Positions 1-14,899 of a stretch of 14,940 bases of DNA are shown piece after piece. The position numbers were made by a program, and so were the translations under genes. Every line of letters starts with the position of its first letter. The stretch's first letter is position 1. Under the pieces are notes generated by a model. The model searched no databases. It was not told where the DNA came from and saw only the letters and a list, made by a program, of their open reading frames with translations. The DNA comes from a virus: UHGV virus genome UHGV-0315034; one strand, 5' to 3'.

Positions 1-408
1 CGGGTATTCTTCAGCAGAAAAAGCCGCACCATTGCATTTTAGCCAGCCTGTTGGCGGAGTGGCGGAAGGCCACGGGACAGGCACACCAACGGGTAATGCC
101 GAACCTTCTCCCAAACCAAGGTTTTCGAGAGCTGTTTTCACCGTGCCATCCGATTTGATATCGCCAAACGGATTCTTGCGGCTTAACAGCAGCGCACGAA
201 GCGCGGTAAGCAGCTGGTCATGCCGCCCCTTCTCCAGGCTGGCACCGGATGCCTCCACAACGCTGCAAAGCTCCTCCTGCAACATGTCAAAGTAGTCATC
301 ATCCAGATCGGTGGCAGGCGTGCCAGTCTGGGGGTTACCACGGGTAAAACCGTTCTTACCCGTGCCGAACTTATCCTTCTGCGCGGTTTTCGTGTCTATA
401 CGATGCAT
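1..408 (-). CDS. Phage tail fibre protein, N-terminal part (5' partial; continues beyond window start)
   Basis: Own translation of minus strand: ATG at 408..406, GGAG 6 nt upstream, in-frame stop just upstream at 412..414; open to position 1. Product [20 protein letters not shown]...[44 protein letters not shown] contains the tail-fibre collar-type motif (compare lambda Stf ...AGAPIPWPSD...). Not in ORF track because it runs off the edge. Confidence 0.6.
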
Positions 409-953
409 GGATTACTCCGGATACCGCCAATCACCAGCCTGCCGTGCGGGTCGTCGTAAGCCAGTGCCTGCTGCTGACCGAGTATTTTGTTGATTACCTC
501 AATCACCGTTTCACCGTGATCAGGCTGAACATCAGGAATAACACCCGACGGCGCACCGCTGTTCACCACCTCAATGCCGAAAGGCGCAGCAAGCGCCTGC
601 GCAATCTGCACCAGCGAGCGTCCGTTAAACTGTGTCGGTTCGGCTGCACAGTCAATCAGGTCAGCCGTCAGACTACGTCCGGCAATACCGGTGCTGACCG
701 AACGGGAATCGTAACGAACGGGCGTCGCCTCCACCCAGCCGGTGATCACCAGCTCATCACCAATCAGCACTTCCACTTTTGAACCGTTTTTAATGCGCGG
801 CTGAAGCGTGGTGATACCCTCATCTCCCGGCCACTGGCGGGTGATCTCCACACTGAAATCCCGCGCCAGCCGTTCAATACCGGCACCGATGCGCACCGAT
901 GTCCAGCCATTCCACTCCCGGCCATTTACCCGTAGCGTGACATTGTCGTTCAT
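396..953 (-). CDS. Truncated baseplate protein fragment (Mu gpP / P2 gpD-like N-terminal region)
   Basis: 185-aa ORF; N-terminus [22 protein letters not shown] resembles the start of gpD/Mu-P baseplate hub proteins, which are about twice as long. Overlaps the tail fibre start by 13 nt. Likely a remnant. Confidence 0.35.
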
Positions 954-2473
954 TGCACTGGCACCTTCAGAGGGATCACCGGCACAAAGCCGGGATGCGT
1001 AATGGCATTACGCCGGATAATGTCCGCGTCACGCGCCGCGTTATCAAACCAGGTCGCCGCCAGCACCAGCGCGGGTAAAACCTCATCCGGTGTGCGCTGA
1101 ATGATCCGTGCAGACTGTTCAAGGCGCGTGTTGATATCCGCATTCAGATCTGCTTTCACCCGGCGCAGCGCCAGAAACAGCGCATCGCTGGTTGTACGGG
1201 ACAACTCCTTATCAATTGCCGTATTCAGTGTGTCGCGAATGTCAGTCAGTTCTTCCCACGTCGGCAGGTCAACCGTGTTTTTCACCGCCGGTGCATTGTT
1301 CAGTGCCGGATGCGTGACGGAAGGCCAGCCAGTGCTCTGCGCGGGTGTTGTTGCCTGCCCCACTGCGGAATTCTGCATCACCGCGGAAGTTGTTGGCGCA
1401 GGCAATCGGGTGACGGCATACGCCGCTTCGCTGATTGCGGTCGTACGAAGGGTGCTGGCAACCACGTTACGCTGCTGCGTCGCCGTGGCGGTGGTTTTAC
1501 TGTCCGTTTTCCAGACGCCGCGCGGTTGCAGATCGCTGCCGAGGCTGACACCGGAAAGCGTTTTGATCATGGTGACCAGGTCGCTGGCGTTACCATAAAG
1601 GCGTTTCCCGGTACGCCACATTTTCTGCACCTGCTCAACGAAATTTTTGCCTGACGATGGCGGCGGCAGAAGTACCGAGATATCCCCCTGCAACAGCCTG
1701 GCGGCATCCGATACGGCAGAATCCACCACTTTCATCGCATCAGAAACATACCCAAGCATTGTGCTGGCATTACCGATAACGTCGTTCTGCACGAAATCCG
1801 CCACACCATCGATACTGAAACCGCTGAAGCTGTCACTGATGCGGTCATCCAGTGCAGAACAGGATGACATCAGCGTCTGCGCCGTCGCCGCACCTGATGT
1901 GGGGTAAGAGAGTTCTCCTGCTTCGACAAACTTCAGGTCAAAGCGGACAATACGCCCTTCACTTTTCGATGTGCTGACCCGAACTTCCCCGTCAACACAG
2001 ACTTTCAGCTCACCATATGTCGGGTGGACAAGCGTGCCGGGACCGGGTTTATTCAGCGCTTCAATCAGGCGATCGCGCTGGTCAAAGCAGTCATCTCCCA
2101 CCACATAAGCTGTGATGGACGGGCGGAAAGTGACTTTTCCCAGATCTTCGGTATGGCGTAACGACTGGATAGTGGTGATATCACCGGTTACGACATCAAC
2201 CAGGTCTTTGGTTTCATAACCGAGATATGTGTGTTTGAGAGCATCTTTTACCCAAGCTGGAGTGGCGAACGTTTTACCCCTGCTGATGAGGTATTCACTG
2301 ATTTCGCTGTACCACATGTGGCTGAGTGCATTCTGGGAAAGACTGCGTCTCTCGCGCCACGGTTTAAGCACCATGCGAAAGCATTTGCCGTCCTCCAGAT
2401 AAGGCTGGATCTGCCGACCGATAGCGGTGAAGTTACCGCGATGCAATTTGATACCATCTTGTGGGAGGTTCAC
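950..2473 (-). CDS. Chimeric ORF: NinB-like N-terminus (about 100 aa) fused in frame to Mu gpN-like DNA-circulation/baseplate protein
   Basis: N-terminal segment [23 protein letters not shown]...AWVKDALK matches the lambda NinB/Orf pattern (ERNRSLDQN...ESWKCVFTAALK) as recalled. Remainder ([32 protein letters not shown]...) resembles Mu N-type proteins. RBS GGAGGTG 7 nt upstream of ATG 2473. Confidence 0.5.
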
Positions 2474-2713
2474 GCTTCACCTCCGCAGAGGTCAAACGTT
2501 GGATGCAAGATATCGCAGGTGCATTTCTGCATCTGTGACTGGTTGAAAGGTGTTCTGATTGTCGTTTGCACTTTGAGTCCCCTCAAAGCGCAGAAGTCAC
2601 CGGAGTTGTTCAGGCTCCGATGACATGATTATGGCGAGTTGATTATGATGAATCAATAGGTTCTTATGTCAAATGGACACTAGATCCAAAGGAGGGTAAC
2701 AATTATCATAGCC

Positions 2714-2731
2714 AATGAGATTAATCTCATT
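2714..2731. promoter_or_regulatory. 18-bp perfect palindrome AATGAGATTAATCTCATT directly upstream of the 472-aa gene RBS
   Basis: Read directly; reverse complement identical. Followed by a T-run, the RBS AAGGA, then ATG 2749. Candidate operator or leader hairpin. Confidence 0.4.
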
Positions 2732-2748
2732 TTTAATAAGGAAATTTC

Positions 2749-4167
2749 ATGAAATATTTCTCAACTGGTTTTTATGTTTCAAACTCCACATCTCTAGCTG
2801 AGATCTTTAATGAATGTTTTTCTTGGGTAAACGACTCACCACATACAACTTTTATTCCAGCACAATTAGTATGTGATTATAAAAGCGAGGAGTACTTCAT
2901 AGAGTCTAAAAATGAAAGAATTGATATAATAACTTATAAAAACAAAGATACTAGTTTAGGCTGTTTTAGGTATTCGAAAATATCTGAGCCACACAAATGG
3001 GTAACAGATATTTCAATTAATAAAAATCTCAAAACTGATACCATGTGGATTCAGGTGGAATCTAGCGTTGTAAGCCAAGATGCAGCTTATCTAGCCCCGC
3101 AACCTAAGAAACCATTAGTTGTTATGAGATTGATTGATAAATTTCCTGGTGGTCTTGATGATATTTTCAAGGTGTCAGTCGAACCTCATTCCTTAGATGA
3201 TACTGATGAACATTTAAATATAGCAGCTAAAGTTATAAATGGTGAAACTGACAACAGACTACCAATAATATACGTTAGCTCCAAGTATTTTTTTAATGAA
3301 CATGCTCACAATATCATCCCAGAACGCCTTGCAAGAAAGGTATGCGGATTAGCACATGTATTAATTGAGCCTAGCAATAGACTATTTTCTATTAAGCTAA
3401 AAAATGAGACAAATGCTAAAAATGCCTATGCTGGTGCTGTTGGTATCTATTGGCCACGGGGTCAAAATATCAGTTTTTATCGCCGTGGTGAGAAAACCGC
3501 AAAAGAATTTGAAGATGAGTTATTTGATGATGTTGTAAGAGCTACGACTACAATGGCTCCTGTCTCAGATAGTGGATGGAGTGAGATACAAACCAGAAAA
3601 ACGAAAGACTCTATTAACTCACTCAAAGAAAGAGGAGAATACACACGCGAACTGATGGCGCTTTACGAAGCCGATAATGTTGCGAAAGATGACCAAATAG
3701 AAGATCTTAAGCATAAGATCTCCTCTTTAGAGCACAGAGTACGCACTCTTCAATCACAAGCTTCAGCCCAAGGAAGCATTGCGCTTAATGCTGGTGAAGA
3801 GACTGACTTTTTTGATGGAGAAATCAAAAATATAATTATTGACGCACTAAAAACTGCCATAAAAAATAAAAATGAATTTGGTAGAAGCTACCATATCTTA
3901 TCATCCCTAATTGCCAATAATGAATACAATAAAGAAACCGAGAGTCGCCGCCAATTACTTAAAAGGACTTTAACAGGTTACAGAAGCATGGATAGCGCAA
4001 CACAAAGAAATTTAAAGGACTTAGGTTTCAGTGCGTCAAGCGATGGAAAACACTGGAAGTTAACATATAATGAAGACCCTCGATATTCCTATATTTTACC
4101 TAAAACAGGAAGTGACCACAGAGGTTCTTTAAATGCTATCTCGGATATAGCAAATATTATTTTCTAA
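2749..4167 (+). CDS. Hypothetical 472-aa protein of unknown function in an AT-rich island (candidate exclusion/defence moron)
   Basis: Long ORF on the strand opposite to the pR operon; AAGGA 8-9 nt upstream of ATG; tandem stops TAATAA. Lys/Asn-rich, reflecting low GC. Central coiled-coil-like segment DQIEDLKHKISSLEHRVRTLQSQ. No Walker A or other motif I can recognise. Confidence 0.6.
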   Translation: MKYFSTGFYVSNSTSLAEIFNECFSWVNDSPHTTFIPAQLVCDYKSEEYFIESKNERIDIITYKNKDTSLGCFRYSKISEPHKWVTDISINKNLKTDTMWIQVESSVVSQDAAYLAPQPKKPLVVMRLIDKFPGGLDDIFKVSVEPHSLDDTDEHLNIAAKVINGETDNRLPIIYVSSKYFFNEHAHNIIPERLARKVCGLAHVLIEPSNRLFSIKLKNETNAKNAYAGAVGIYWPRGQNISFYRRGEKTAKEFEDELFDDVVRATTTMAPVSDSGWSEIQTRKTKDSINSLKERGEYTRELMALYEADNVAKDDQIEDLKHKISSLEHRVRTLQSQASAQGSIALNAGEETDFFDGEIKNIIIDALKTAIKNKNEFGRSYHILSSLIANNEYNKETESRRQLLKRTLTGYRSMDSATQRNLKDLGFSASSDGKHWKLTYNEDPRYSYILPKTGSDHRGSLNAISDIANIIF

Positions 4168-4175
4168 TAAATTTC

Positions 4176-4201
4176 AATAGCACTCACAAATGAGTGCTAT
4201 T
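4176..4201. terminator. Perfect hairpin (11-bp stem AATAGCACTCA / TGAGTGCTATT, loop CAAA) between convergent genes
   Basis: Read directly; lies 9 nt after the 472-aa stop and 17 nt downstream of the 84-aa ORF stop. Flanking U-tracts are weak, so terminator function is uncertain. Confidence 0.45.
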
Positions 4202-4218
4202 GTTGCCACTGAATTATT

Positions 4219-4473
4219 CTATTTAAATTCAACTTTTATCCCTTTGTTTAGCAGGGCATCAGAAACTGCCTTTTTTGTAACATTTATCCCTGCAAGCAAT
4301 GCTTTATGCATTGGTCCCTTAAAAATCTCTACTTCTTCTTCAGTGAGTTTAGGCAATGTAATATAAATAACATCTTTCATCTGCTTGTTTTTATAGCATG
4401 AGCTTCTTGTGTGCTTACAATCGATATTTTCTTTATTTCCCAAAACATCATCCCCTTTATAATTCAGTTCCAC
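4219..4473 (-). CDS. Hypothetical small protein (84 aa), convergent with the 472-aa gene
   Basis: ORF-track ORF with a GTG start and no convincing Shine-Dalgarno; internal ATG at 4380. AT-rich context makes chance ORFs likely. Sits 64 bp downstream of ren on the same strand. Confidence 0.3.
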   Translation of the reverse strand: MELNYKGDDVLGNKENIDCKHTRSSCYKNKQMKDVIYITLPKLTEEEVEIFKGPMHKALLAGINVTKKAVSDALLNKGIKVEFK

Positions 4474-4537
4474 ACATCAATTATTTAGTTATCACGAATG
4501 TCGTAAAACTAAAATTAGTAACAATAATTGCTCATAC

Positions 4538-4825
4538 CTACCCTCTTCCATATAAAGCCAACACCCGCTTCATCGCGGCACTTTGACGACACTCCTTAAA
4601 AATCAGATTCGTGCTCACCTTTCCTTCCCGTTCTTCTCTGGTAGCGAACCGGTAATACACCGTTCGCCAGACCTTACCATCAACGACCAGGATTCCTGCC
4701 CGCGCCATTTTAGCCGCAGCCTGATTTATGCTGGTTACGGTTGCGCCTGTTACCGCGGCAACGTCCTGCGCACAGAAGTTCTTATGAGTCCCCAGGTAAT
4801 GAATAATTGCCTCTTTGCCCGTCAT
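4538..4825 (-). CDS. ren: Ren protein (lambda-type)
   Basis: Product MTGKEAIIHYLGTH...VWRTVYYRFATREEREGK closely matches lambda Ren as recalled. ATGA overlap with the P stop. Confidence 0.9.
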   Translation of the reverse strand: MTGKEAIIHYLGTHKNFCAQDVAAVTGATVTSINQAAAKMARAGILVVDGKVWRTVYYRFATREEREGKVSTNLIFKECRQSAAMKRVLALYGRG

Positions 4826-5523
4826 ACACTTGCTCCTTTCAGCCCAAACTTCGCTTTGATTTCTGCGATCTTCGCCAGAGACTGAACACGATTAAGCGGT
4901 CTCCCGCCCATAACAGGAAGTTGTTTTACTGGTTCCGGTATCGCCTCACCACGGTTAATTCGCGCTGTCATACAGGCCAGTTCATCGGCAGCCTTGCGCC
5001 GTAATTCCGCATCAGTCAGCGCATTGGCCCGCATGTTCTGATACAGGTTGGTAACCAGCCAGTAGTGCGCGTTTGATTTCCACGGATAAGACTCTGCATC
5101 CGGATACAGGCCACGTTTCCGGCAATACTCGTAAACCATATCAACCAGCTCGCTGGCGTTTGGCAGCCCGGCGGTAACGGATGCTTCTTCCCGGCACCAG
5201 GCAACAAACTGCCCGGGTGATGGCAGGAATGGTCGATTCTGCCGACGGGCTACGCGCATTCCTGCGTTAACCTGTTCCATCGTGGTGATCCCGTTTTCCC
5301 GGAAAGCCAGAACCCACTGGCGGCGGATTTCGTTCAGTTCGTTCTGGTCCCGGTTAGCCAGGCTCGCCGGGAAAGTTGCCAGTAACTGGCTGAACACACC
5401 ATTGATGATCTGCGCTACCTGTTGTACCTGCGGCTTTTCGTCGTACTGTTCCGGCATGTTGTTGGCGATCCGGCGCATCTGCTCACGGTCAAAGTTAACC
5501 ATCTGTGCGGCGATGTTTTTCAT
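4822..5523 (-). CDS. P: Replication protein P (DnaB helicase loader), lambda-type
   Basis: 233 aa; MKNIAAQMVNFDREQMRRIANNMPEQYDEK... near-identical to lambda P as recalled. ATGA overlap with the O stop. Confidence 0.95.
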   Translation of the reverse strand: MKNIAAQMVNFDREQMRRIANNMPEQYDEKPQVQQVAQIINGVFSQLLATFPASLANRDQNELNEIRRQWVLAFRENGITTMEQVNAGMRVARRQNRPFLPSPGQFVAWCREEASVTAGLPNASELVDMVYEYCRKRGLYPDAESYPWKSNAHYWLVTNLYQNMRANALTDAELRRKAADELACMTARINRGEAIPEPVKQLPVMGGRPLNRVQSLAKIAEIKAKFGLKGASV

Positions 5524-6539
5524 AAATCCACCCCGTAAATCCAGTCAGTGTTTGTCAGGTCGAGTTTTGATTTTCCGGCTGTCACGCCAGCCTGTTGCTT
5601 GTTACGGTTGATTTCGAGTTGGGTCCACTTGTCGCGGAGTTTGGCCGGACTTAGCACGTTACCGGACCAGAAGTTGTCCTGGCATGCCCAGCGGAACAGC
5701 ACGCACATGTCGCGGTGGTTACGGCCGTCACGTTCACGCATCAGGCGGATATCGTTAGCCCACCCTGCAAAATTCGGTTTTCTGGCTGATGGCGCGATGG
5801 TCTTCACCATGTCAAACATCCACTCTGCGGCGGTCAGGTCTTCTGCTGTCCCCCACTTGCTGCCACTCTGAATTGCAGCATCCGGTTTAACCACAGGAAG
5901 ATCGTCTTCTGGTTGGTCAGAGGATTCGCCAGAATTCTCGGACGAAAAAGGTTTTATATTGTCTTTTGTTAGTTTGTCTTTTGTGTTTACCTGATTCGGG
6001 TAAACGCCTTTACCTGATTTGGGTAAACTTTTCTTACCTGATTCAGGTAAATTTACCTCTTTCAGGTAAACTTTATTTTTCTTACCTGATTCGGGTAATG
6101 TTGACCATTCACTGACCACATTATTAATGCCTATATTCCGCCCGCTCTGAATAAAAATCCCACGCTTTACCAGAGCACTTTTTGCAGCAGAACACTTGTG
6201 CGGCAATATCCCGGTCAACTCGGAAAGTTGCTCGTTGCTCACCCAATCCAGTTTTTTATTAAAGCCATATGTTTTGCGCATGACAGCCAGGAAGACCAGA
6301 AGCTGGTGCTGTGTTAATCCGGCCAGCATTACAGCTTCCAGCAACTCATTTGCAATGCGCGTATAACCATCATCGAGATCTGCCACGCGCGGCTCCTTTT
6401 GTGCCGCATCCGGCACAGGAAAATTGAATATCTCAGCAGTGTTTGCCATAATTCCTCCCGCAATGAGTGTGTTACGATTTGCACCTGAAAGTCGGTTCTG
6501 TTCCCGCAGACCGACTTTCGCCATTTTTGAACCTGTCAT
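5520..6539 (-). CDS. O: Replication initiator O-like protein (diverged iteron-binding N-domain, lambda-like C-terminus)
   Basis: N-terminal ADLDDGYTRIANELLEA...LRKTYG matches the lambda O N-domain family. Iteron array lies inside the gene (encoded as repeated PESGKK). C-terminus ...TDWIYGVDL is lambda-O-like. ATGA overlap with the upstream gene. Confidence 0.85.
   Translation of the reverse strand: MTGSKMAKVGLREQNRLSGANRNTLIAGGIMANTAEIFNFPVPDAAQKEPRVADLDDGYTRIANELLEAVMLAGLTQHQLLVFLAVMRKTYGFNKKLDWVSNEQLSELTGILPHKCSAAKSALVKRGIFIQSGRNIGINNVVSEWSTLPESGKKNKVYLKEVNLPESGKKSLPKSGKGVYPNQVNTKDKLTKDNIKPFSSENSGESSDQPEDDLPVVKPDAAIQSGSKWGTAEDLTAAEWMFDMVKTIAPSARKPNFAGWANDIRLMRERDGRNHRDMCVLFRWACQDNFWSGNVLSPAKLRDKWTQLEINRNKQQAGVTAGKSKLDLTNTDWIYGVDL
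5988..6100. repeat. Origin of replication: five ~18-bp iterons (consensus TACCTGATTCGGGTAAAC) with adjacent AT-rich tract (5941..5987)
   Basis: Read directly: iterons at 5988..6005, 6011..6028, 6035..6052, 6054..6071, 6083..6100; the third contains the perfect palindrome TACCTGA-T-TCAGGTA. Same architecture as lambda ori inside O, but a different sequence from the lambda iterons. Confidence 0.8.
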
Positions 6540-7075
6540 ATTGCCCCCAACATGGTGGTAACCATCGCCATCAATGGACCAGCCAGATCCGGGTCCACAC
6601 GAAACATCGACACAATACCTTCACTCATCTCCTTCAGTTTCTGGTGGCGTGGTGCGTTGAGAATGACAGCCTGTTTTGCCTCACTGAGTTCCTTTTCCAT
6701 TTCAGCCAACCGAGTCATGAAGCTATCCTGCTCAACCAGGTAACCGCGATATTCCAGCGGTAGTACCGCCAGAATTGCCGGGGTCAGTTCACGCACGTTA
6801 TTTCGGTATTTTTCAGAATCGAATTTGTTATCGAGGAAGCGGAACAGCTTCTGGCGTGCACGGCTGACATCATCAGGGAAATCGATGGTGCCGCCGCCCT
6901 GCTCCCGATACTCATTCACAATGAGTGCGGCAACAACATCCTGATTATCTGCAGCCGACCAGGCGCGGACGGCATCACGGATTTTTTCGTGGCCTGGCAC
7001 CTGTTTTGTTTGAGAACGATTTATCACCGCAGTCGGGCTAAATCCGCTAGTCTGTTGGTATGTAAGTGGTTGCAT
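6536..7075 (-). CDS. Regulatory protein in the cII position (YdaT / CII-like family suspected)
   Basis: 179-aa ORF directly downstream of the cro-like gene and upstream of O, with RBS AAGGAG 6 nt before ATG. Much longer than lambda CII (97 aa); position mirrors ydaS-ydaT in Rac-type immunity regions. Family assignment is from recall only. Confidence 0.45.
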   Translation of the reverse strand: MQPLTYQQTSGFSPTAVINRSQTKQVPGHEKIRDAVRAWSAADNQDVVAALIVNEYREQGGGTIDFPDDVSRARQKLFRFLDNKFDSEKYRNNVRELTPAILAVLPLEYRGYLVEQDSFMTRLAEMEKELSEAKQAVILNAPRHQKLKEMSEGIVSMFRVDPDLAGPLMAMVTTMLGAI

Positions 7076-7120
7076 AATTGACTCCTTTAGTTTGAATTGA
7101 CTGTTAAGTTGATTGCTTAT

Positions 7121-7132
7121 TGTTAAAGAGCG
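7121..7132 (-). promoter_or_regulatory. boxA-like element (CGCTCTTTAACA on the minus strand), candidate nutR
   Basis: Read directly between the cro stop and the next gene start; lambda boxA is CGCTCTTACACA. No convincing boxB hairpin seen downstream. Confidence 0.4.
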
Positions 7133-7144
7133 TGAAATGGAAAT

Positions 7145-7375
7145 TTAAGCTGCGTTCTTTTCGGTGTGTGGAAACAACTTCGGAAGATCCGGGCGAATCT
7201 GGTATGCCTTCACTACTCCACCAGTAGCCGTAACAATGCTGCCGACATGTTCAGGGGATACCTTTGCTTTGTTGTGAAGCCACTTATAGACGGCCTGCTG
7301 TGAAACTTCGCAGGCAGCGCCCAGTTTCTTTTGTGAACCAACGATATTGATCGCTGTTTTGATAGCTGGGTTCAT
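7145..7375 (-). CDS. cro: Cro-like HTH repressor (YdaS-like)
   Basis: 76 aa with HTH segment KKLGAACEVSQQAVYKW; divergent from the cI-like gene; strong RBS GGAGG 5 nt before ATG. Confidence 0.8.
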   Translation of the reverse strand: MNPAIKTAINIVGSQKKLGAACEVSQQAVYKWLHNKAKVSPEHVGSIVTATGGVVKAYQIRPDLPKLFPHTEKNAA

Positions 7376-7479
7376 AACAACCTCCGTGGTTAATTCGAAT
7401 CAAGATTAAAACTATGGTTGTTTTTAGTCAACAACCATTTTCGTTTGATAGAATAAAACCTTGGTTGTACATTTGGACT
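7376..7479. promoter_or_regulatory. Divergent promoter/operator region (pR/pRM equivalent) with operator palindrome ATGGTTGTT-N7-AACAACCAT at 7414..7438
   Basis: Intergenic between divergent cro-like and cI-like genes; 9-bp perfect inverted arms read directly; extra GTTGT half-site at 7462..7468. Confidence 0.6.
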
Positions 7480-8169
7480 ATGAAAACAACACTCTCAGAA
7501 AGACTTAAAGAAGCCAGATTAGCGCGAGGCCTTACACAAAAGGCGCTTGGGGATTTGGTCGGGGTTAGCCAAGCTGCTATTCAGAAAATCGAAACAGGGA
7601 AAGCTAACCAAACAACTAAAATCGTGGAGATCGCGAACGCTTTGGGTGTGCGCGCAGAATGGTTATCTTCTGGCGTTGGAAATATGTCAGACAGTACAGT
7701 GCAACCAATACCATCAACTGTCAGCCATTCCAAATACTTTAAGATTGACGTTCTTGATATAGAAGTGAGTGCCGGGCCGGGAGTCATCAACCGTGAGTTT
7801 GTAGAAGTTCTACGCTCGGTTGAGTACTCGTTTGACGATGCTCGTCACATGTTCGATGGTAGGAAGGCAGAAAATATCCGCATCATTAACGTACGCGGTG
7901 ACAGCATGTCAGGAACGATCGAACCAGGTGATCTGCTGTTCGTTGATATCACGGTTAAATCTTTCGACGGTGATGGCATCTATGCGTTTCTGTACGACGA
8001 CACCGCCCATGTAAAGCGCCTGCAAATGATGAAGGATAAGCTGCTGGTTATCTCTGATAACAAGAGCTACTCACCGTGGGACCCGATCGAGAAAGACGAG
8101 ATGAACCGGGTGTTTATCTTCGGGAAAGTTATTGGGAGCATGCCGCAAACATATAGGAAGCATGGTTAG
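7480..8169 (+). CDS. cI: CI-type prophage repressor (N-terminal HTH plus C-terminal LexA/S24-like autocleavage domain)
   Basis: HTH LSERLKEARLARGLTQKALGDLVGVSQAAIQKIETGK; C-terminal RGDSMSGTIEPGDLLFVD...VKR matches the S24 peptidase Ser/Lys motif region. Start chosen at ATG 7480; the ORF-track start at 7414 lies inside the operator palindrome. Confidence 0.85.
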   Translation: MKTTLSERLKEARLARGLTQKALGDLVGVSQAAIQKIETGKANQTTKIVEIANALGVRAEWLSSGVGNMSDSTVQPIPSTVSHSKYFKIDVLDIEVSAGPGVINREFVEVLRSVEYSFDDARHMFDGRKAENIRIINVRGDSMSGTIEPGDLLFVDITVKSFDGDGIYAFLYDDTAHVKRLQMMKDKLLVISDNKSYSPWDPIEKDEMNRVFIFGKVIGSMPQTYRKHG

Positions 8170-8240
8170 CTAAAACACAAGATAGACTTACCTACAAACA
8201 ACCACCAGTTAAAATAAATAAAAATCAAAGAGATAATGTC

Positions 8241-9152
8241 ATGAGCCATCAGTCCGCCCACCAACAAGAAATGTCTTTATTTCCTGTAAAAGAAGTTGAA
8301 GTAAACGGTGTACAAATGGGTGTTCTCAATGATGGAACTCCATTTTTGAGTCTCCGTGGATTATCTAGGTTATGTGGGGTCGATCACACCACACTTTTAC
8401 CTCTCACCACCAACTGGTCAATAGAAAAGAATAAACCCAGAGGAAGGAGAATTGCGGAGCTTCTTTCAGAGAATGGTTTTAAAGGTGATCAATTATATTC
8501 CGTTGTCGGCGGAGGCGCATTTGGTGATACACATGCCTATCCAGATGCCGTATGCATGGCAATTCTTGAATATTATGCTTTCGATGCCACACAGGTTGAT
8601 AGCACTATAGCCAGGAAAAATTACCGCCTATTAGCACGTCAAACACTTCGAGACTATATATACAAAAGTGTAGGTATTGACCCGAGAAATCCAATTAGTG
8701 GCGCCTGGAAATGTTTTCAAGAGCGAATATTGCTTAATGACAAAATTCCTGCAGGTTTCTTCAGTGTTTTTAGAGAGATGGTCGATATCACAGTTCCACT
8801 TATCAATGCAGGATTTGAGCTTGGCCCAAAAACAGTACCTGATATTAGTGTGGGTGGACGATGGGCAATCCACTGGAAGAAAAACAATCTTAGTGAAAAA
8901 TATGGCGATGTGAAAAAATATCCACATGAATATCCAGATTGGTTTCCTCAAAGTAAAGCAGGAAAAGTTCCTGCCAATATTTATCCGGAAGAGGCTTTAG
9001 GTGAATTTCGCAGATGGCTAAGAGAAGAATACATTCCAAAGGGTTTCAAAGATTATCTTGCTGATAAAGTTCAGCAGAAAGTAATTGAAAATACTAAGGC
9101 TATTGAAGTTTTAGAAAATTTGCAGCGCCCAAATCTCCCTAAGGCTCGTTAA
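8241..9152 (+). CDS. 303-aa protein in the rex slot downstream of cI; KilA-N/Bro-N-like N-terminus; possible BstA-family abortive-infection protein
   Basis: Co-oriented 72 bp downstream of cI and followed by a clean terminator. N-terminal VNGVQMGVLNDGTPFLSLRGLSRLCGVDHTTL resembles KilA-N-type DNA-binding domains. Size and position match what I recall of BstA; not lambda RexA by recall. AT-richer than flanking phage genes. Confidence 0.45.
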   Translation: MSHQSAHQQEMSLFPVKEVEVNGVQMGVLNDGTPFLSLRGLSRLCGVDHTTLLPLTTNWSIEKNKPRGRRIAELLSENGFKGDQLYSVVGGGAFGDTHAYPDAVCMAILEYYAFDATQVDSTIARKNYRLLARQTLRDYIYKSVGIDPRNPISGAWKCFQERILLNDKIPAGFFSVFREMVDITVPLINAGFELGPKTVPDISVGGRWAIHWKKNNLSEKYGDVKKYPHEYPDWFPQSKAGKVPANIYPEEALGEFRRWLREEYIPKGFKDYLADKVQQKVIENTKAIEVLENLQRPNLPKAR

Positions 9153-9159
9153 TTCTCAT

Positions 9160-9186
9160 CCCGGCTGCCATGCCGGGTTTCTTTTG
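9160..9186 (+). terminator. Rho-independent terminator (stem CCCGGC/GCCGGG, loop TGCCAT, then TTTCTTTTG)
   Basis: Read directly, 8 nt after the stop of the 303-aa gene. Confidence 0.7.
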
Positions 9187-9289
9187 CCTTCTCCTCATCA
9201 CACACCGTTCAAAAAACCACCACGACCTCGCTTCAGTTATCGCTATGCGATGCAAGTCACAAAATAAATCCATCTTAAATACAACCAGT

Positions 9290-9350
9290 TATATCTAAAA
9301 CAACCAACAAAACAACTTTTGTTGTTGACGATAAAACAACTATAGTTTTA
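9290..9350 (+). promoter_or_regulatory. pL/oL-equivalent region: palindrome AACAAC-TTTT-GTTGTT (9311..9326), extra AACAAC half-sites, TTGACG -35-like hexamer
   Basis: Read directly; shares the GTTGTT/AACAAC half-site with the 7414..7438 operator; located upstream of the gam-bet-exo operon on the same strand. Exact -10 not confidently assigned. Confidence 0.4.
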
Positions 9351-9426
9351 AATGAATTCATCGCAACAACACAACGATACGGCAATCACCTGATTCACCG
9401 TTGCGATGACCGCTTAGATCCGCAGC

Positions 9427-9837
9427 TTGAATTTCAGCAGGCTCCGGGGAGTGCGAGGGGTGAAGCGGACGCGTGAACGTCGGTGTGACCAGCTGAAATC
9501 AACTCAACACTTCATACCTCAGTCGCTTCAACGAGGCGGCTTAGTTATGACAACCGGCGGCCATCCACCGCCTGAATACGCGCAGAAGTCTCTATATGTT
9601 CAGCAGCCCAGCTTACGGGCAGGAGTTTTTATGGTTCATCAACATTACGGAACGCAGACCGTTAATCGAGGTGCGGTCATGCCAGGAATGCTGGTCAAAC
9701 ACAAAGATGGTACCTGGACTGCATCAGCTAATTTACGCGGACGGCTATATCTGCATCGCGGCATCGAGCGCACTTATACCCGTGATTTGCTCGTGGAAGT
9801 TTTTCTCGACGGACGCGGTAACGGCCTGAATCACTAA
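9427..9837 (+). CDS. Hypothetical early protein downstream of pL; Arg-rich N-terminus (possible N-like antiterminator); start codon uncertain
   Basis: Open frame of 136 codons from a TTG start; N-terminal [15 protein letters not shown] resembles an arginine-rich RNA-binding motif (lambda N has QTRRRERRAEK). Alternative ATG starts at 9547 and at 9631, the latter with AGGAG 6 nt upstream. No similarity to lambda N, kil or cIII by recall. Confidence 0.3.
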
Positions 9838-9912
9838 TCCCCTTTCCTGTTTTCCTAATCAGCCTGGCATTTCGCGGGCGATATTTTCACAGCCATTTTC
9901 AGGAGTTCAGCC

Positions 9913-10209
9913 ATGAACGCTTATTACATTCAGGATCGTCTTGAGGCTCAGAGCTGGGCACGTCACTACCAGCTGATCGCCCGTGAAGAGAAAGAGGCAG
10001 AACTGGCAGACGACATGGAAAAAGGTCTTCCACAGCACCTGTTTGAATCACTCTGCATCGATCATTTGCAACGCCACGGGGCCAGCAAAAAAGCCATTAC
10101 TCGTGCATTTGATGACGATGTTGAGTTTCAGGAGCGTATGGCAGAACACATCCGGTACATGGTTGAAACCATTGCTCACCACCAGGTTGATATTGATTCA
10201 GAGGTATAA
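9913..10209 (+). CDS. gam: Gam (RecBCD inhibitor), short-form length
   Basis: [20 protein letters not shown]...[10 protein letters not shown] matches the lambda Gam short form as recalled; AGGAG RBS; in-frame TAA at 9856..9858 excludes a lambda-style long form from an ATG. Confidence 0.9.
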
Positions 10210-10214
10210 AGCGG

Positions 10215-11000
10215 ATGAGTACAGCACTCGCAACGCTGGCAGGGAAGCTGGCTGAACGTGTCGGCATGGATTCTGTCGACCCACAGGAACTGATCACCAC
10301 TCTTCGCCAGACGGCATTTAAAGGTGATGCCAGCGATGCGCAGTTCATCGCATTGTTGATCGTCGCCAACCAGTACGGCCTTAATCCGTGGACGAAAGAA
10401 ATTTACGCCTTCCCTGATAAGCAGAACGGCATCGTTCCGGTGGTGGGCGTTGATGGCTGGTCCCGCATCATCAATGAAAACCAGCAGTTTGATGGCATGG
10501 ACTTTGAGCAGGACAATGAATCCTGTACATGCCGGATTTACCGCAAGGACCGTAATCATCCGATCTGCGTTACCGAATGGATGGATGAATGCCGCCGCGA
10601 ACCATTCAAAACTCGCGAAGGCAGAGAAATCACGGGGCCGTGGCAGTCGCATCCCAAACGGATGTTACGGCATAAAGCCATGATTCAGTGTGCCCGTCTG
10701 GCCTTCGGATTTGCTGGTATCTATGACAAGGATGAAGCCGAGCGCATTGTCGAAAATACTGCATACACTGCAGAACGTCAGCCAGAACGCGACATCACTC
10801 CGGTTAACGATGAAACCATGCAGGAGATTAACACTCTGCTGATCGCCCTGGATAAAACATGGGATGACGACTTATTGCCGCTCTGTTCCCAGATATTTCG
10901 CCGCGACATTCGTGCATCGTCAGAACTGACACAGGCCGAAGCAGTGAAAGCTCTTGGATTCCTGAAACAAAAAGCCACTGAGCAGAAGGTGGCAGCATGA
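10215..11000 (+). CDS. bet: Bet (Red-beta single-strand annealing recombinase)
   Basis: 261 aa; [59 protein letters not shown]... matches lambda Bet as recalled. Confidence 0.95.
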
Positions 11001-11677
11001 CACCGGACATTATCCTGCAGCGTACCGGGATCGACGTGAGAGCTGTCGAGCAGGGGGATGATGCGTGGCACAAATTACGGCTCGGCGTCATCACCGCTTC
11101 AGAAGTTCACAATGTGATAGCAAAACCCCGCTCCGGAAAAAAGTGGCCTGACATGAAAATGTCCTACTTCCACACCCTGCTGGCTGAGGTTTGCACCGGT
11201 GTGGCTCCGGAAGTTAATGCTAAGGCGCTGGCATGGGGAAAACAGTACGAGAACGACGCCAGAACTCTGTTTGAATTCACTTCCGGCGTGAATGTTACTG
11301 AATCCCCGATCATCTATCGCGACGAAAGTATGCGTACCGCCTGCTCTCCCGATGGTTTATGCAGTGACGGCAATGGCCTTGAGCTGAAATGCCCGTTTAC
11401 CTCCCGGGATTTCATGAAATTCCGGCTCGGTGGTTTCGAGGCCATAAAGTCGGCTTACATGGCCCAGGTGCAGTACAGCATGTGGGTGACGCGAAAAGAT
11501 GCCTGGTACTTTGCCAACTATGACCCACGAATGAAGCGTGAAGGCCTGCATTATGTCGTGGTTGAGCGGGATGAAAAGTACATGGCGAATTTTGACGAGA
11601 TGGTGCCGGAGTTCATCGAAAAAATGGACGAGGCACTGGCTGAAATTGGTTTTGTATTTGGGGAGCAATGGCGATGA
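10997..11677 (+). CDS. exo: Exo (lambda exonuclease, Red-alpha)
   Basis: 226 aa; [65 protein letters not shown]... matches lambda Exo as recalled; ATGA overlap with bet. Confidence 0.95.
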
Positions 11678-11832
11678 AGCATCCTCGCGATAATATCCGG
11701 GTAGGCGCGATCACTTTCATCTACTCCGTTACAAAGCGAGGCTGGGTATTTCCCGGCCTTTCTGTTATCAGAAATCCACTGAAAGCACAGCGGCTGGCTG
11801 AGGAGATAAATAATAAACGGGAGAGTGTATGA
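11674..11832 (+). CDS. Small ORF (52 aa) translationally coupled to exo and to the downstream gene
   Basis: Own translation: [52 protein letters not shown]; ATGA overlaps at both ends. Below the ORF-track size cut-off. Occupies the position of lambda orf60a. Confidence 0.45.
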
Positions 11833-12581
11833 TTCATTTTCACGGTGGTCCAATAACTCCCGATACCTGTGCGTTGAAAGCCTGGAAAGGCAGACACGCA
11901 TTCATCAGTTTTGCTAATCCAGCTCAGATTGATCTGGCTTCCGAAGTCACCCAATCATTTGCTCTTGATAATGGTGCATTCACATTCTGGACAAAAAACA
12001 AGGCCGTAGACTGGAATGAATATTACAGATTTGTTGAACGCTGGGGTAATCACCCTCGTTTCTCATTCGCGGTTATCCCGGATGTTATCGGCGGAACCAG
12101 TGAAGAGAATGACGCCCTGATTGCGGCATGGCCTCACGGTAAATTTATTGGTGCTCCGGTGTGGCACATGAACGAACCAGATGAGCGATTTATTCGTCTG
12201 TGCCATGAGTTTCCCCGCGTCTGCATCGGCTCGATGGGGGAATACGATGCAAAACGACCGAGAGCGTGTCGGGCTAAACTACGCGATCTTATACGTCATG
12301 TTGTAGATCAGTACGGCTACCCAATCACCAAGATTCATGGGTTACGGATGTTAAATAAAGACATTTTTACTCATGTACCGCTTTCGTCTGCAGACAGCAC
12401 GAACGTCGCAAGAAATATAGGCATCGACAAATCCTGGGTAGGTTCGCCATATGCTCCCGCAAGTAAAGAAACCCGTACGCAAGTTCTTGTGGAACGCATT
12501 GAATCATTCAACAGTGCCAGTTCACTTAATTACAACGCTGAACGGGACGTCTTTACCCCTCAACTGGCATTCGAAGTGTGA
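11829..12581 (+). CDS. 250-aa protein with TGT-fold (tRNA-guanine transglycosylase-like) motifs; candidate DpdA-type DNA guanine transglycosylase
   Basis: By eye against recalled E. coli Tgt: ALDNGAF (residues ~45-51) vs TDSGGFQ catalytic-Asp motif; CIGSMGEY (~132-139) vs GGLAVGE; SSADSTNVARN (~186-196) vs FDCVMPTRNARN, with similar spacing. No CxCxxC zinc subdomain. Not computed. Confidence 0.5.
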   Translation: MIHFHGGPITPDTCALKAWKGRHAFISFANPAQIDLASEVTQSFALDNGAFTFWTKNKAVDWNEYYRFVERWGNHPRFSFAVIPDVIGGTSEENDALIAAWPHGKFIGAPVWHMNEPDERFIRLCHEFPRVCIGSMGEYDAKRPRACRAKLRDLIRHVVDQYGYPITKIHGLRMLNKDIFTHVPLSSADSTNVARNIGIDKSWVGSPYAPASKETRTQVLVERIESFNSASSLNYNAERDVFTPQLAFEV

Positions 12582-12588
12582 GGCCAAT

Positions 12589-12804
12589 ATGACAATAGAA
12601 CATAATAACGCCCTTCGCAGCATAGCCCGTCAGGCTAATTCTGAAATCAAAAAAGCCAGACAGCAGTTTCCGGATAAAAACGTCGATGACATTTGCCGTA
12701 GCGTACTGAAGAAGCACCGCGAAACGGTAACGCTGATGGGATTCACACCGACTCATTTAAGCCTGGCGATCGGCATGTTAAACGGCGTCTTTAAGGAGCG
12801 ATGA
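12589..12804 (+). CDS. Hypothetical small protein (71 aa)
   Basis: ATG 12589 with GAGG 5 nt upstream; lies in the longer ORF-track frame 12451..12804, whose upstream part overlaps the preceding gene. Confidence 0.5.
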   Translation: MTIEHNNALRSIARQANSEIKKARQQFPDKNVDDICRSVLKKHRETVTLMGFTPTHLSLAIGMLNGVFKER

Positions 12805-12826
12805 ACATGAAAAGCAAAATCATCAG

Positions 12827-12850
12827 GGAGCTACAGGCTCCTTTTTTATT
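12827..12850 (+). terminator. Putative rho-independent terminator (stem GGAGC/GCTCC, loop TACAG, then TTTTTTATT)
   Basis: Read directly between the 71-aa gene and the TraR-like gene. Confidence 0.45.
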
Positions 12851-12902
12851 ATTCGCATTCACCCTCAAGCGTATTAACCAACAATTCAGGGATTAATGGA
12901 AG

Positions 12903-13121
12903 ATGGCAGACATCATTGATTCAGCATCAGAAATCGAAGAATTACAGCGCAATACAGCAATAAAAATGCGTCGTCTGAACCACCAGGTTATATCTGCCAC
13001 TCATTGTTGTGAGTGTGGCGATCCCATAGATGAACGAAGACGCCTGGCCGTTCAGGGTTGTCGGACTTGTGCAAGTTGCCAGGAGGAGATCGAACTTAAG
13101 AACAAACAATGGGGATTGTGA
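12903..13121 (+). CDS. DksA/TraR-family C4 zinc-finger protein
   Basis: 72 aa with CxxC...CxxC spacing (CCECGDPIDERRRLAVQGCRTCASC) typical of TraR/DksA C4 zinc fingers common in lambdoid exo-xis regions. Confidence 0.65.
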   Translation: MADIIDSASEIEELQRNTAIKMRRLNHQVISATHCCECGDPIDERRRLAVQGCRTCASCQEEIELKNKQWGL

Positions 13122-13168
13122 TGGCCTCAAAGCAGCAAATTTCAACATCGTCCAACTGAGGTGTAAAA

Positions 13169-13447
13169 ATGTTCAGAATCATTTTTCCTAACACCTGGTA
13201 CATCGACCACCACGGCACTCCCTGCAAAATCCTGCGTTCTACCCACAACAAAGTTCACTACATCCGAAAAGGCAGAACATGTATCGCCAGCATGTTCCGC
13301 TTTAATCATGACTTTGAACCTGTGAATAAAGCTGATGCAGATCGGATAGCAGAAGAGATCGAAACGGCAGAACACATTAAGAAGTTACGTGACATGCGTT
13401 CAAAAAGCAGAGGTAACCATGGAATCATACAGCCTCACACTCGATGA
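13169..13447 (+). CDS. Hypothetical protein (92 aa)
   Basis: ORF with GAGGTG RBS 7 nt upstream of ATG; no family recognised. Confidence 0.5.
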   Translation: MFRIIFPNTWYIDHHGTPCKILRSTHNKVHYIRKGRTCIASMFRFNHDFEPVNKADADRIAEEIETAEHIKKLRDMRSKSRGNHGIIQPHTR

Positions 13448-13769
13448 GGCCTGTCAGTTTCTCAAGATATCCAGACCTACCGCTACCAACTGGATACGAA
13501 CAGGCCGCCTACAGGCAACACGCAAAGACCCCACTAAACTAAAATCTCCTTACCTCACAACACGACAAGCCTGCATTGCGGCGCTTCAGTCTCCGCTGCA
13601 TACTGTCCAGGTGAGCGCGGGTGATGGCATAACAGAGGAAAGAAAATGTCACTCTTCCGCAGAGGTGAAATATGGTACGCCAGTTTCACATTGCCGAACG
13701 GTAAAAGATTTAAACAGTCTCTTGGAACAAAGGACAAAAGGCAGGCGACAGAGCTCCATGACAAGCTAA
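13419..13769 (+). CDS. xis: Excisionase Xis (P22-type)
   Basis: [38 protein letters not shown]... matches P22 Xis as recalled; GAGG RBS; 124-nt overlap with the int start in a different frame. Confidence 0.85.
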
Positions 13770-14809
13770 AGGCTGAAGCATGGCGGGTCAGCAAACTTGG
13801 TGAAATACCTGATATGACGTTCGAGGAGGCGTGTATCAGGTGGCTCGAAGAGAAAGCACATAAAAAATCACTGGACGATGACAAAAGCCGGATCGGATTC
13901 TGGCTTCAACATTTCGCAGGAATGCAACTAAGAGACATTACTGAATCAAAAATTTATTCAGCAATGCAGAAAATGACGAACCGGCGTCATGAGGAAAACT
14001 GGAAACTCAGGGCAGAAGCATGCAGAAAAAAAGGGAAACCTGTTCCAGAATACACGCCAAAACCAGCGTCCGTTGCAACGAAGGCTACGCATCTTTCATT
14101 TATAAAGGCCCTACTAAGAGCCGCAGAGCGTGAATGGAAAATGCTGGATAAGGCACCAATTATTAAAGTGCCTCAACCAAAGAATAAACGGATCCGCTGG
14201 CTGGAGCCCCATGAAGCACAAAGGCTGATTGATGAATGTCCGGAGCCATTAAAGTCTGTTGTTGAATTTGCACTGGCAACAGGCTTAAGACGCTCGAACA
14301 TCATCAACCTTGAATGGCAACAAATAGATATGCAGCGCCGGGTGGCATGGATAAACCCGGAAGAGAGTAAATCAAACCGCGCAATCGGCGTTGCGCTGAA
14401 TGATACTGCATGTCGCGTTTTGAAAAAACAAATCGGGAATCATCACCGTTGGGTATTTGTGTACAAGGAAAGCTGTACCAAACCAGACGGAACGAAAGCG
14501 CCAACAGTAAGGAAGATGCGGTATGACGCAAACACAGCCTGGAAAGCGGCGCTGAGACGGGCTGGTATTGATGATTTCAGATTTCACGACTTGAGACACA
14601 CCTGGGCAAGTTGGCTGGTTCAAGCCGGAGTCCCGTTGTCAGTGTTACAGGAAATGGGAGGCTGGGAGTCTATCGAAATGGTTCGTCGATATGCTCACCT
14701 TGCACCTAATCACCTTACCGAACACGCACGGCAAATAGACTCGATCCTGAACCCATCGGTCCCAAATTTGTCCCAGTCAAAAAATAAGGAAGGTACTAAT
14801 GATGTGTAA
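13646..14809 (+). CDS. int: Tyrosine integrase (P22 Int-type)
   Basis: 387 aa; [47 protein letters not shown]... matches P22 Int as recalled; C-terminal [10 protein letters not shown]...YAHL catalytic region; ends 14 bp before the tRNA 3' end. Confidence 0.95.
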
Positions 14810-14823
14810 CTTATTGATTTAAA

Positions 14824-14899
14824 TGGTGCCGATAATAGGAGTCGAACCTACGACCTTCGCATTACGAATGCGCTGCTCTACCAACTGAGCTATATCGGC
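14824..14899 (-). tRNA. thrW: tRNA-Thr (anticodon CGU), thrW-type; prophage attachment junction overlaps its 3' end
   Basis: Reverse complement of 14824..14899 folds as a 76-nt cloverleaf: acceptor GCCGATA/TATCGGC, D-stem GCTC/GAGC, anticodon loop TTCGTAA, T-loop GGTTCGACTCC, encoded CCA. Confidence 0.9.

Follow-up and report, generated by a model that had tools for sequence, protein, structure and literature searches.

A ninB::N fusion reading frame as a probable deletion scar in a defective SfV-like prophage at thrW, and recurrent end points of deletions in its tail genes

How does a gene of the lambdoid nin region come to be read without interruption into a gene for a Mu-like tail? The question is raised by an open reading frame (ORF) in a 14,940-nucleotide stretch of the virus genome UHGV-0315034 (the window), which starts as ninB (ybcN) and ends as the gene for gpN, a relative of the N protein of phage Mu. 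A preliminary description, made from the sequence alone, took this ORF for the in-frame scar of a deletion that had removed nin, Q, lysis, head and tail-sheath genes. The evidence presented here makes it very probable that the chimeric ORF is such a scar in a defective, thrW-integrated SfV-like prophage, and not a designed gene. The object is ordinary prophage decay, a fusion pseudogene of a known kind that marks a recent 15.9-kb deletion; its tail-gene break point, which was not discussed in the preliminary description, belongs to a well-supported pattern, a recurrent, polar, nucleotide-precise hot spot that is as yet unexplained.

The parental genes and the deleted interval

The ORF has 507 codons and begins with GTG, preceded by GGAGG six bases upstream, a placement that is the same in phage 82 and in the prophage of Escherichia coli YZ22MPE54; the start and ribosome-binding site are those of native ninB, as had been described. 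Residues 1 to 116 matched PHROG 72 (NinB/Orf; E = 1e-31), and residues 1 to 113 followed positions 1 to 113 of the 151-position NCBIfam profile NF007281 (YbcN subfamily) with 187 bits against a cut-off of 164; the Pfam NinB model did not reach an E value of 0.01 on the chimera. At the DNA level, window positions 2150-2473 are 99.6% identical to ybcN of YZ22MPE54 and 98.5% identical to orf151 of phage 82, and identity to ybcN stops at position 2150. The NinB-like N-terminal segment of the preliminary description is thereby borne out: in comparison with lambda Orf (NinB) and YbcN of DLP12, the family match covers residues 1 to 113, whereas the last 43 to 45 of the 151 residues of YbcN are replaced by foreign sequence, and a complete NinB/YbcN domain (about 146 to 151 residues) is absent. 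The nin-region context is native upstream of the ninB part (ren, an accessory gene and a truncated orf33); downstream, the nin genes are deleted. Proteins of 107 to 108 residues that NCBI lists as "YbcN, partial" from E. coli isolates with differing alleles (P0122, P0125 and P0126) end exactly at the ninB-side break (...SLRH/T); they may stem from contigs that stop at this same scar or from a boundary between mosaic segments within ybcN.

The remainder of the ORF is a Mu N-type protein that lacks its own N terminus, as had been proposed. Residues 107 to 505 matched positions 44 to 408 of the 411 positions of PHROG 184 (baseplate hub; E = 7e-118), residues 109 to 498 aligned to residues 61 to 485 of PDB chain 9ki1 (495 residues; deposited as "DNA circularization protein N"), and of the DNA_circ_N domain (PF07157) only profile positions 36 to 88 of 88 are present. 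The body of Mu N (gp43) is alignable and a gpP homolog, which overlaps the stop codon of the chimera, is the next gene as it is in Mu; unlike Mu N, the chimera lacks the first 56 to 58 residues, and it has lost its sheath, tube and tape measure partners together with most of those in the baseplate. In megablast comparisons, window positions 950-2154 showed 99.7 to 99.8% DNA identity to the DNA-circularization (N-like) gene of SfV-like prophages. The gpN-derived part is 99.65% identical to the prophage gene of enterotoxigenic E. coli H10407, from which it differs by three substitutions (two of them nonsynonymous), and 98.5% identical to that of phage SfV, but only 97.75% identical to that of the thrW comparator YZ22MPE54. 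The N gene contains an internal 14-residue tandem repeat, present in one to four or more copies depending on the allele (442 to 499 residues; proteins P0011, P0012, P0015, P0016, P0021 and P0022), and the window has a single copy.

What exceeds chance in this ORF is the abrupt switch from one near-identical parental gene to the other; the open frame alone carries no weight, because about one join in three would be in frame by chance. Junction 1 can be placed to the base. Positions 1-319 of the ORF are unique to ninB, ninB positions 320-324 coincide with N positions 170-174, and N positions 175-1374 follow. Chimera codons 107 and 108 fall in this 5-bp overlap, at which ninB codon 108 is joined to gpN codon 59, and the reading frame stays open because both break points follow a complete codon (gene positions 324 and 174).

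Both deletions were measured against the record of the intact comparator prophage of YZ22MPE54 (L006). This prophage is apparently complete, lies beside a tRNA-Thr gene, and has the integrase, Red, replication and 472-residue accessory genes in the same way as the window. After the accessory gene, its order is ybcN, ninE, DUF1364, rusA, ylcG and Q; holin, lysozyme and Rz/Rz1; HNH, terS, terL, portal, protease, capsid and connectors; and then sheath, tube, chaperone, tape measure, N, P, V, gp46, J, ymfQ, fiber and gtrABC. Relative to this map, L006 positions 15890..31755 are absent at junction 1, a deletion of 15,866 bp that took the other nin genes, Q, the lysis cassette, the HNH and terminase genes, portal, protease, capsid, connectors, sheath, tube, chaperone and tape measure. 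The preliminary description had suggested that an intact thrW-integrated SfV-like phage would yield the deletion end points and that ninB and the tail genes would normally lie more than 15 kb apart; the comparison gave end points at 15890 and 31755 and a distance of 15.9 kb. No mobile element was found at either join.

A second scar inside gpP, absent from the preliminary description, means that the remaining tail genes are also wrecked. Window positions 105-423 match L006 10709-11027, and positions 421-2154 match L006 14156-15889, such that gpP codon 177 is joined to the last 12 nucleotides of ymfQ and the rest of gpP, gp45/V, gp46, gp47/J and most of ymfQ are gone. It is because of this deletion that the gpP ORF has its first two domains only. 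The retained downstream end starts with TAT. A complete late region for a viable phage is thus not present, 15,866 bp and 3,128 bp being missing relative to L006.

Because the window is a metagenome contig (European Nucleotide Archive [ENA] ERZ19693231, k119_594, 15,029 bp), an assembly artifact had to be excluded. Reads from two prophages in the sample might have been misjoined: the contig is of the MEGAHIT k119 style, both parental genes are common in E. coli, and the exact junction was found in none of 5,426 complete E. coli genomes and in no phage record, nor was its exact 40-mer present in the GTDB species representatives. However, for a de Bruijn graph at k = 119 to misjoin two sequences, they must have 118 bases in common, and the parents share 5 bp. 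The junction occurs in four contigs from three samples, its protein also lies on a 33-kb Logan contig, and a separate public record (OOBI01001242.1) is 100% identical to window positions 369-14876 (14,508 bp), both scars included. Fusions of exactly the same kind are present in isolate genomes, including the complete chromosome of E. coli LR-46. We therefore consider an assembly chimera to be highly improbable.

A different origin would be illegitimate recombination between two prophages in one chromosome, a lambdoid prophage at thrW and a separate SfV-like prophage, with deletion or rearrangement of the chromosome between them. The closer match of the N part to the H10407-type allele than to that of the thrW comparator is consistent with such an origin, strains such as EC02 carry the early region and a 99.8% identical N allele at different loci, and tandem or adjacent prophages exist, for example, in ET201. 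However, gene order and orientation in the window agree exactly with the map of one SfV-like prophage, and the second scar, too, preserves collinearity with it. Moreover, the prophage at the same chromosomal locus (the pao/LysR side) in E. coli T16R has a 99.8% identical N allele, mosaic allele exchange is the rule among these phages, and a deletion between distant prophages would take out essential chromosome. Since the single-prophage gene order and the T16R allele make an internal deletion sufficient, recombination of two prophages is not needed, and we regard it as unlikely.

We propose instead that a thrW-integrated lambdoid prophage with an SfV/Mu-type contractile tail would have lost 15.9 kb in one illegitimate recombination event within the prophage, which would have joined ninB (ybcN) codon 108 to gpN codon 59 across the overlap ATACC; a second deletion, of 3.1 kb across a 3-bp overlap, would have removed most of the baseplate. 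The fusion would be in frame by chance, and the loss of killing functions may have given a selective advantage. With the late genes and most of the baseplate deleted, the element should be incapable of cell lysis and of particle assembly.

It could be argued that the chimera is a new functional protein kept by selection, for example, a recombination-mediator domain coupled to a DNA-end-binding tail protein, since the frame is maintained over 507 codons behind a native ribosome-binding site and the sequence is nearly unchanged from that of its parents. Given the 1-in-3 chance of an in-frame join and the recency of the event, however, the open frame is uninformative. Both domains are cut within their family profiles, and the architecture has been seen in this one sequence only: full-length homologs, which the preliminary description had named as contrary evidence, were neither among the 120 best-scoring matches of a search of 5.8 billion proteins, where no match covered more than 87% of the query, nor in 50,697 phage records. 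Furthermore, at least 12 other, unrelated N-terminal partners and one out-of-frame join occur at the same N position, which points to mutation bias and not to selection of this particular pair. We give very little credence to a selected function. The fusion is most likely a functionless by-product, because YbcN is cut short by its C-terminal third and the N-terminal domain of gpN by its first 35 positions, the assembly partners are gone, and the ORF sits in the repressed pR operon, which should be silenced by the intact repressor.

Several points weigh against a single-prophage deletion scar that has lost its function. The N part is nearer to the H10407-type allele than to that of YZ22MPE54, which means that its actual parent is missing from the comparison; the sequence derives from a metagenome, and the junction is known from assemblies, not from reads; and the loss of fusion function is inferred, three substitutions relative to H10407 being too few to show relaxed constraint.

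Recurrent, polar end points in the tail genes

Other fusions of the X::N type were collected from the protein search, and more were found in the 90% cluster that contains the chimera. The N-side end of junction 1 (site A, CCCTA^TACCGAAG, where the caret marks the end point) is common to at least 14 independent fusions with differing upstream partners, in which the N part starts at the same residue (...^TEDLGKV/ITFRPS). These partners are NinB in the window and, elsewhere, DUF1364/YbcO, RusA, Rz, HNH, TerL, capsid (at two positions), sheath (at two positions), tape measure and the early-left region near SfV orf32; one partner is joined out of frame (L062). DNA is in hand for ten site A fusions, namely the window and loci L008, L010, L012, L062, L134-L136, L142 and L143. 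Every one of these junctions can be written with the same fixed N end, and the crossover is at TA in nine of the nine cases, the window included, for which the native partner sequence is known.

There are two further fixed ends of this type. Site B, at N codon 145 (CAGG^TGCGGCGAC), accounts for five events (L137-L139) with portal, capsid, sheath, TerL and a lysozyme-tape measure fusion as partners and with overlaps of 1 to 2 bp. Site C, at gpP codon 90 (ACCGG^TATTGCCGG), emerged from a search with gpP and accounts for two events, tape measure::P and sheath::P (L144); the latter, the sole site C junction with DNA, crosses at TA. In the unbiased match list of the protein search, 12 of the 16 N-terminal truncations of N were at site A or site B. 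The other N break points, at about codons 49, 102, 129 and 137, were seen once each, and one at codon 51 was found among the cluster members.

The pattern is polar. Each of the approximately 20 partner positions on the upstream side was seen only once, every partner maps to the upstream side in the prophage, and where the N gene is itself the upstream partner of a downstream deletion, its break points are scattered. Overlaps in the related fusions are terminal and 1 to 5 bp long. Individual fusions are rare and mostly occur in one genome each: among complete-genome records matching a 230-nucleotide site A query, only 9 of 1,099 had no place covering at least 80% of it. A frame-independent survey of IMG/VR with negative IUPAC patterns found 119 of 120 copies native at site A, the remaining one being the out-of-frame L062, and no nonnative copy at site B. 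A metagenome scan for nonnative junctions returned only the window's own junction. Because each fusion is rare and nearly all copies are native at site A, these are recurrent recent events and not one spreading allele.

A templated insertion was considered at L143 and rejected: the metagenome scaffold has a run of N at positions 7941-7950, between a tape measure-moron part and the HNH'::N site A junction, and the linkage was discarded. In E. coli LR-46 (L134, NZ_AP027537.1), the argW prophage is a heavily decayed SfV-like element in which several scars are combined: a tape measure::N fusion at site A, a gpP'-J' junction and, beside iss, a tail-assembly/Rz1' junction.

Candidate causes of the fixed ends

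The ends at sites A and B have a geometry in common, in that the fixed 3' end belongs to the antisense strand of the late genes (...CGGTA-3' at site A and ...CCGCA-3' at site B). It can be envisioned that such an antisense 3' end pairs, through its one to five terminal bases, with upstream positions that vary. The end might arise from a site-specific break, after which the downstream end would be protected and the upstream end degraded; alternatively, synthesis might stall in a polar manner and then switch template. From the hot-spot data, the deletion in the window probably began at a DNA end formed at the fixed gpN position of site A, which would have been joined via its terminal TA to a variable upstream position.

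The scars in the window, with overlaps of 3 to 5 bp and no mobile element, resemble those of microhomology-mediated illegitimate recombination (alternative end joining) in E. coli. Textbook end joining, however, has no fixed end points, whereas in the many independent events described here the downstream end is constant to the nucleotide and the upstream end varies freely. We regard the arguments as evenly balanced on whether sites A, B and C reflect a previously undescribed, directed inactivation route, in which a DNA end or antisense 3' end is repeatedly formed at defined positions and the downstream side is protected. Candidate causes include a phage or host nuclease, the terminase-HNH pair being one candidate, and a polar block to replication or transcription.

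Several specific sources of a fixed end were considered and rejected. An AAG protospacer-adjacent motif lies 6 nucleotides upstream of site A, yet a repeat-spacer-repeat query of the 5,426 genomes found no type I-E spacer directed at site A or site B, which lends no support to self-targeting by CRISPR (clustered regularly interspaced short palindromic repeats). The cohesive end of SfI and SfV is TGCCCGCCCC (PMC3636060). Cleavage at a pseudo-cos site by the phage's own terminase was also rejected: aligned in register with the cos region, sites A and B showed 18 to 19 identities in 90 positions, which is random identity. Among records matching cos, only 5 of 1,123 lacked at least 80% coverage of a 310-nucleotide query spanning it. 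The core of the lambda cohesive end, GCGGCGAC, occurs in site B, whereas sites A and C do not fit. Lambda exonuclease pauses at GGCGA, a motif that is again fitted by site B and not by sites A and C.

Hairpins offered no explanation, the fold at site A not being unusual (z = -0.2 and +0.8); a moderately stable hairpin (z = -3.3) begins 17 nucleotides downstream of site B. Inspection by eye for Chi sites, insertion sequence (IS) ends, gix-like invertase sites, the thrW att core and type II/III restriction sites revealed nothing convincing, and a search for a motif common to sites A, B and C and junction 2 yielded only T-purine, at the first two positions of the retained sequence. Helper-embedded satellites also target late genes (PMC10111431); they are not applicable here, since such satellites use lambda-type late genes and stay in place (PMC10111431).

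If prophage-killing deletions do start from defined breaks in tail genes, then the domestication of E. coli prophages would be partly directed, with an identifiable enzyme or barrier behind it, and this directed inactivation route would affect very common prophages. The chimera by itself matters for annotation only: its proper annotation is a fusion pseudogene of a defective prophage, not "DNA circularization protein."

The remnant and its relatives

The features of the window are listed in Table 1. The tyrosine integrase adjoins tRNA-Thr(CGT), and the window is collinear with SfV-like prophages, as expected of a thrW-integrating member of this group. The retained integrase, excisionase-like, Red, repressor, BstA and O/P genes are open ORFs that match their families, in agreement with the earlier view of a cryptic prophage that has kept its immunity, recombination, replication and accessory genes. 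By its gene content, the element would be a locked-in remnant in which immunity genes, BstA and another candidate defense gene persist. The 472-residue accessory gene weakly matched the PADLOC candidate HEC-07 (E = 1e-9) and matched no Pfam family; in YZ22MPE54, its insertion truncated the orf33 homolog upstream of ybcN. The 250-residue ORF of the early-left operon had neither a Pfam nor a PADLOC match.

Table 1. Features of the window, in order of position
Feature	Position	Strand	Remarks
Tail-fiber gene, 5' part	1..408	-	ATG at 408; runs off the window, then the contig
Truncated baseplate gene gpP	396..953	-	gpP codons 1-177 followed by 8 from the ymfQ end; the Pfam matches are GpP-like_1st and Gp44-like_2nd alone
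Junction 2	421..423		3-bp microhomology ATA; 3,128-bp deletion (L006 11028..14155)
Chimeric ORF	950..2473	-	507 residues: YbcN/NinB codons 1-106, two overlap codons, SfV-type gpN (Mu N-like) codons 59-457
gpN-derived part (DNA-circularization/baseplate protein)	950..2149	-	Without the first 56-58 codons and the first 35 positions of DNA_circ_N
Junction 1	2150..2154		5-bp microhomology GGTAT (ATACC on gene strand); N-side end is recurrent site A
ninB/ybcN-derived part	2155..2473	-	Native GTG start; last 43-45 of 151 codons gone
Native ybcN ribosome-binding site (GGAGG)	2474..2491	-	Position as in phage 82 and YZ22MPE54
Accessory gene, 472 residues	2749..4167	+	Between ren and ninB, opposite strand; also in intact YZ22MPE54
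ren-like	4538-4825	-	Replication module (4538..6539)
P	4822-5523	-	Replication module; Pfam Phage_lambda_P, E = 1e-61
O	5520-6539	-	Replication module; Pfam Phage_rep_O, E = 6e-34
YdaT-like	6536-7075	-	Immunity region (6536..8169)
Cro/YdaS-like	7145-7375	-	Immunity region
S24 repressor	7480-8169	+	Immunity region
BstA-family abortive-infection/defense gene	8241..9152	+	Directly downstream of repressor; PADLOC BstA, E = 7e-122; PF26567
kil	9631-9837	+	Module 9631..11677
gam	9913-10209	+	Red module
bet	10215-11000	+	Red module
exo	10997-11677	+	Red module
ORF, 250 residues	11829-12581	+	Between DUF1317 gene and TraR/DksA-like gene, early-left operon; conserved in YZ22MPE54
Excisionase-like helix-turn-helix gene	13389-13769	+	Pfam HTH_17
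Tyrosine integrase	13646-14809	+	Pfam Phage_integrase, E = 1e-47
tRNA-Thr(CGT), thrW attachment site	14824..14899	-	ARAGORN; same arrangement in YZ22MPE54

Defective lambdoid prophages with internal deletions are familiar from E. coli, where they include e14, DLP12, Rac and Qin. In e14 and DLP12, lysis and morphogenesis genes have been lost by internal deletion, integrase, immunity and accessory genes are kept, and truncated or fused ORFs mark the scars; e14 is itself an SfV relative with fused or truncated morphogenesis pseudogenes. A relationship of SfI and SfV to e14 has been reported (PMC3636060). The window is like these prophages in the loss of late genes by internal deletion and in its scar ORFs. 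It differs in its integration site, thrW, in a break-point pair that is not found in the 5,426 complete genomes, in replication and Red modules that are still open, and in being very recent, with more than 99.6% identity to intact relatives.

With SfV, SfI, SfII, SfIV and the YZ22MPE54 prophage, the window shares the genome plan, the tRNA-Thr site at thrW, the integrase and the Mu-like tail module, and its N sequence is 97 to 99% identical to theirs. Unlike the SfV-type phages, which are complete (37 to 41 kb), the window is without 19 kb of late genes, and its early region is another mosaic (lambda-type Red, O/P and BstA).

Two other E. coli prophages of this group have features of their own. 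In ET201 (L001 14479-29328), a second SfV-like tail module, arranged in the order of the vegetative map, lies beyond int, after a lambdoid early region, with many genes annotated as frameshifted; this arrangement probably represents tandem prophages at one site. In T16R (L007, NZ_CP046716.1), an IS26-bounded resistance island (fosA3, rmtB, blaTEM-1 and blaCTX-M-55) occupies positions 4400-15800, in the tail-fiber/pin end of the prophage.

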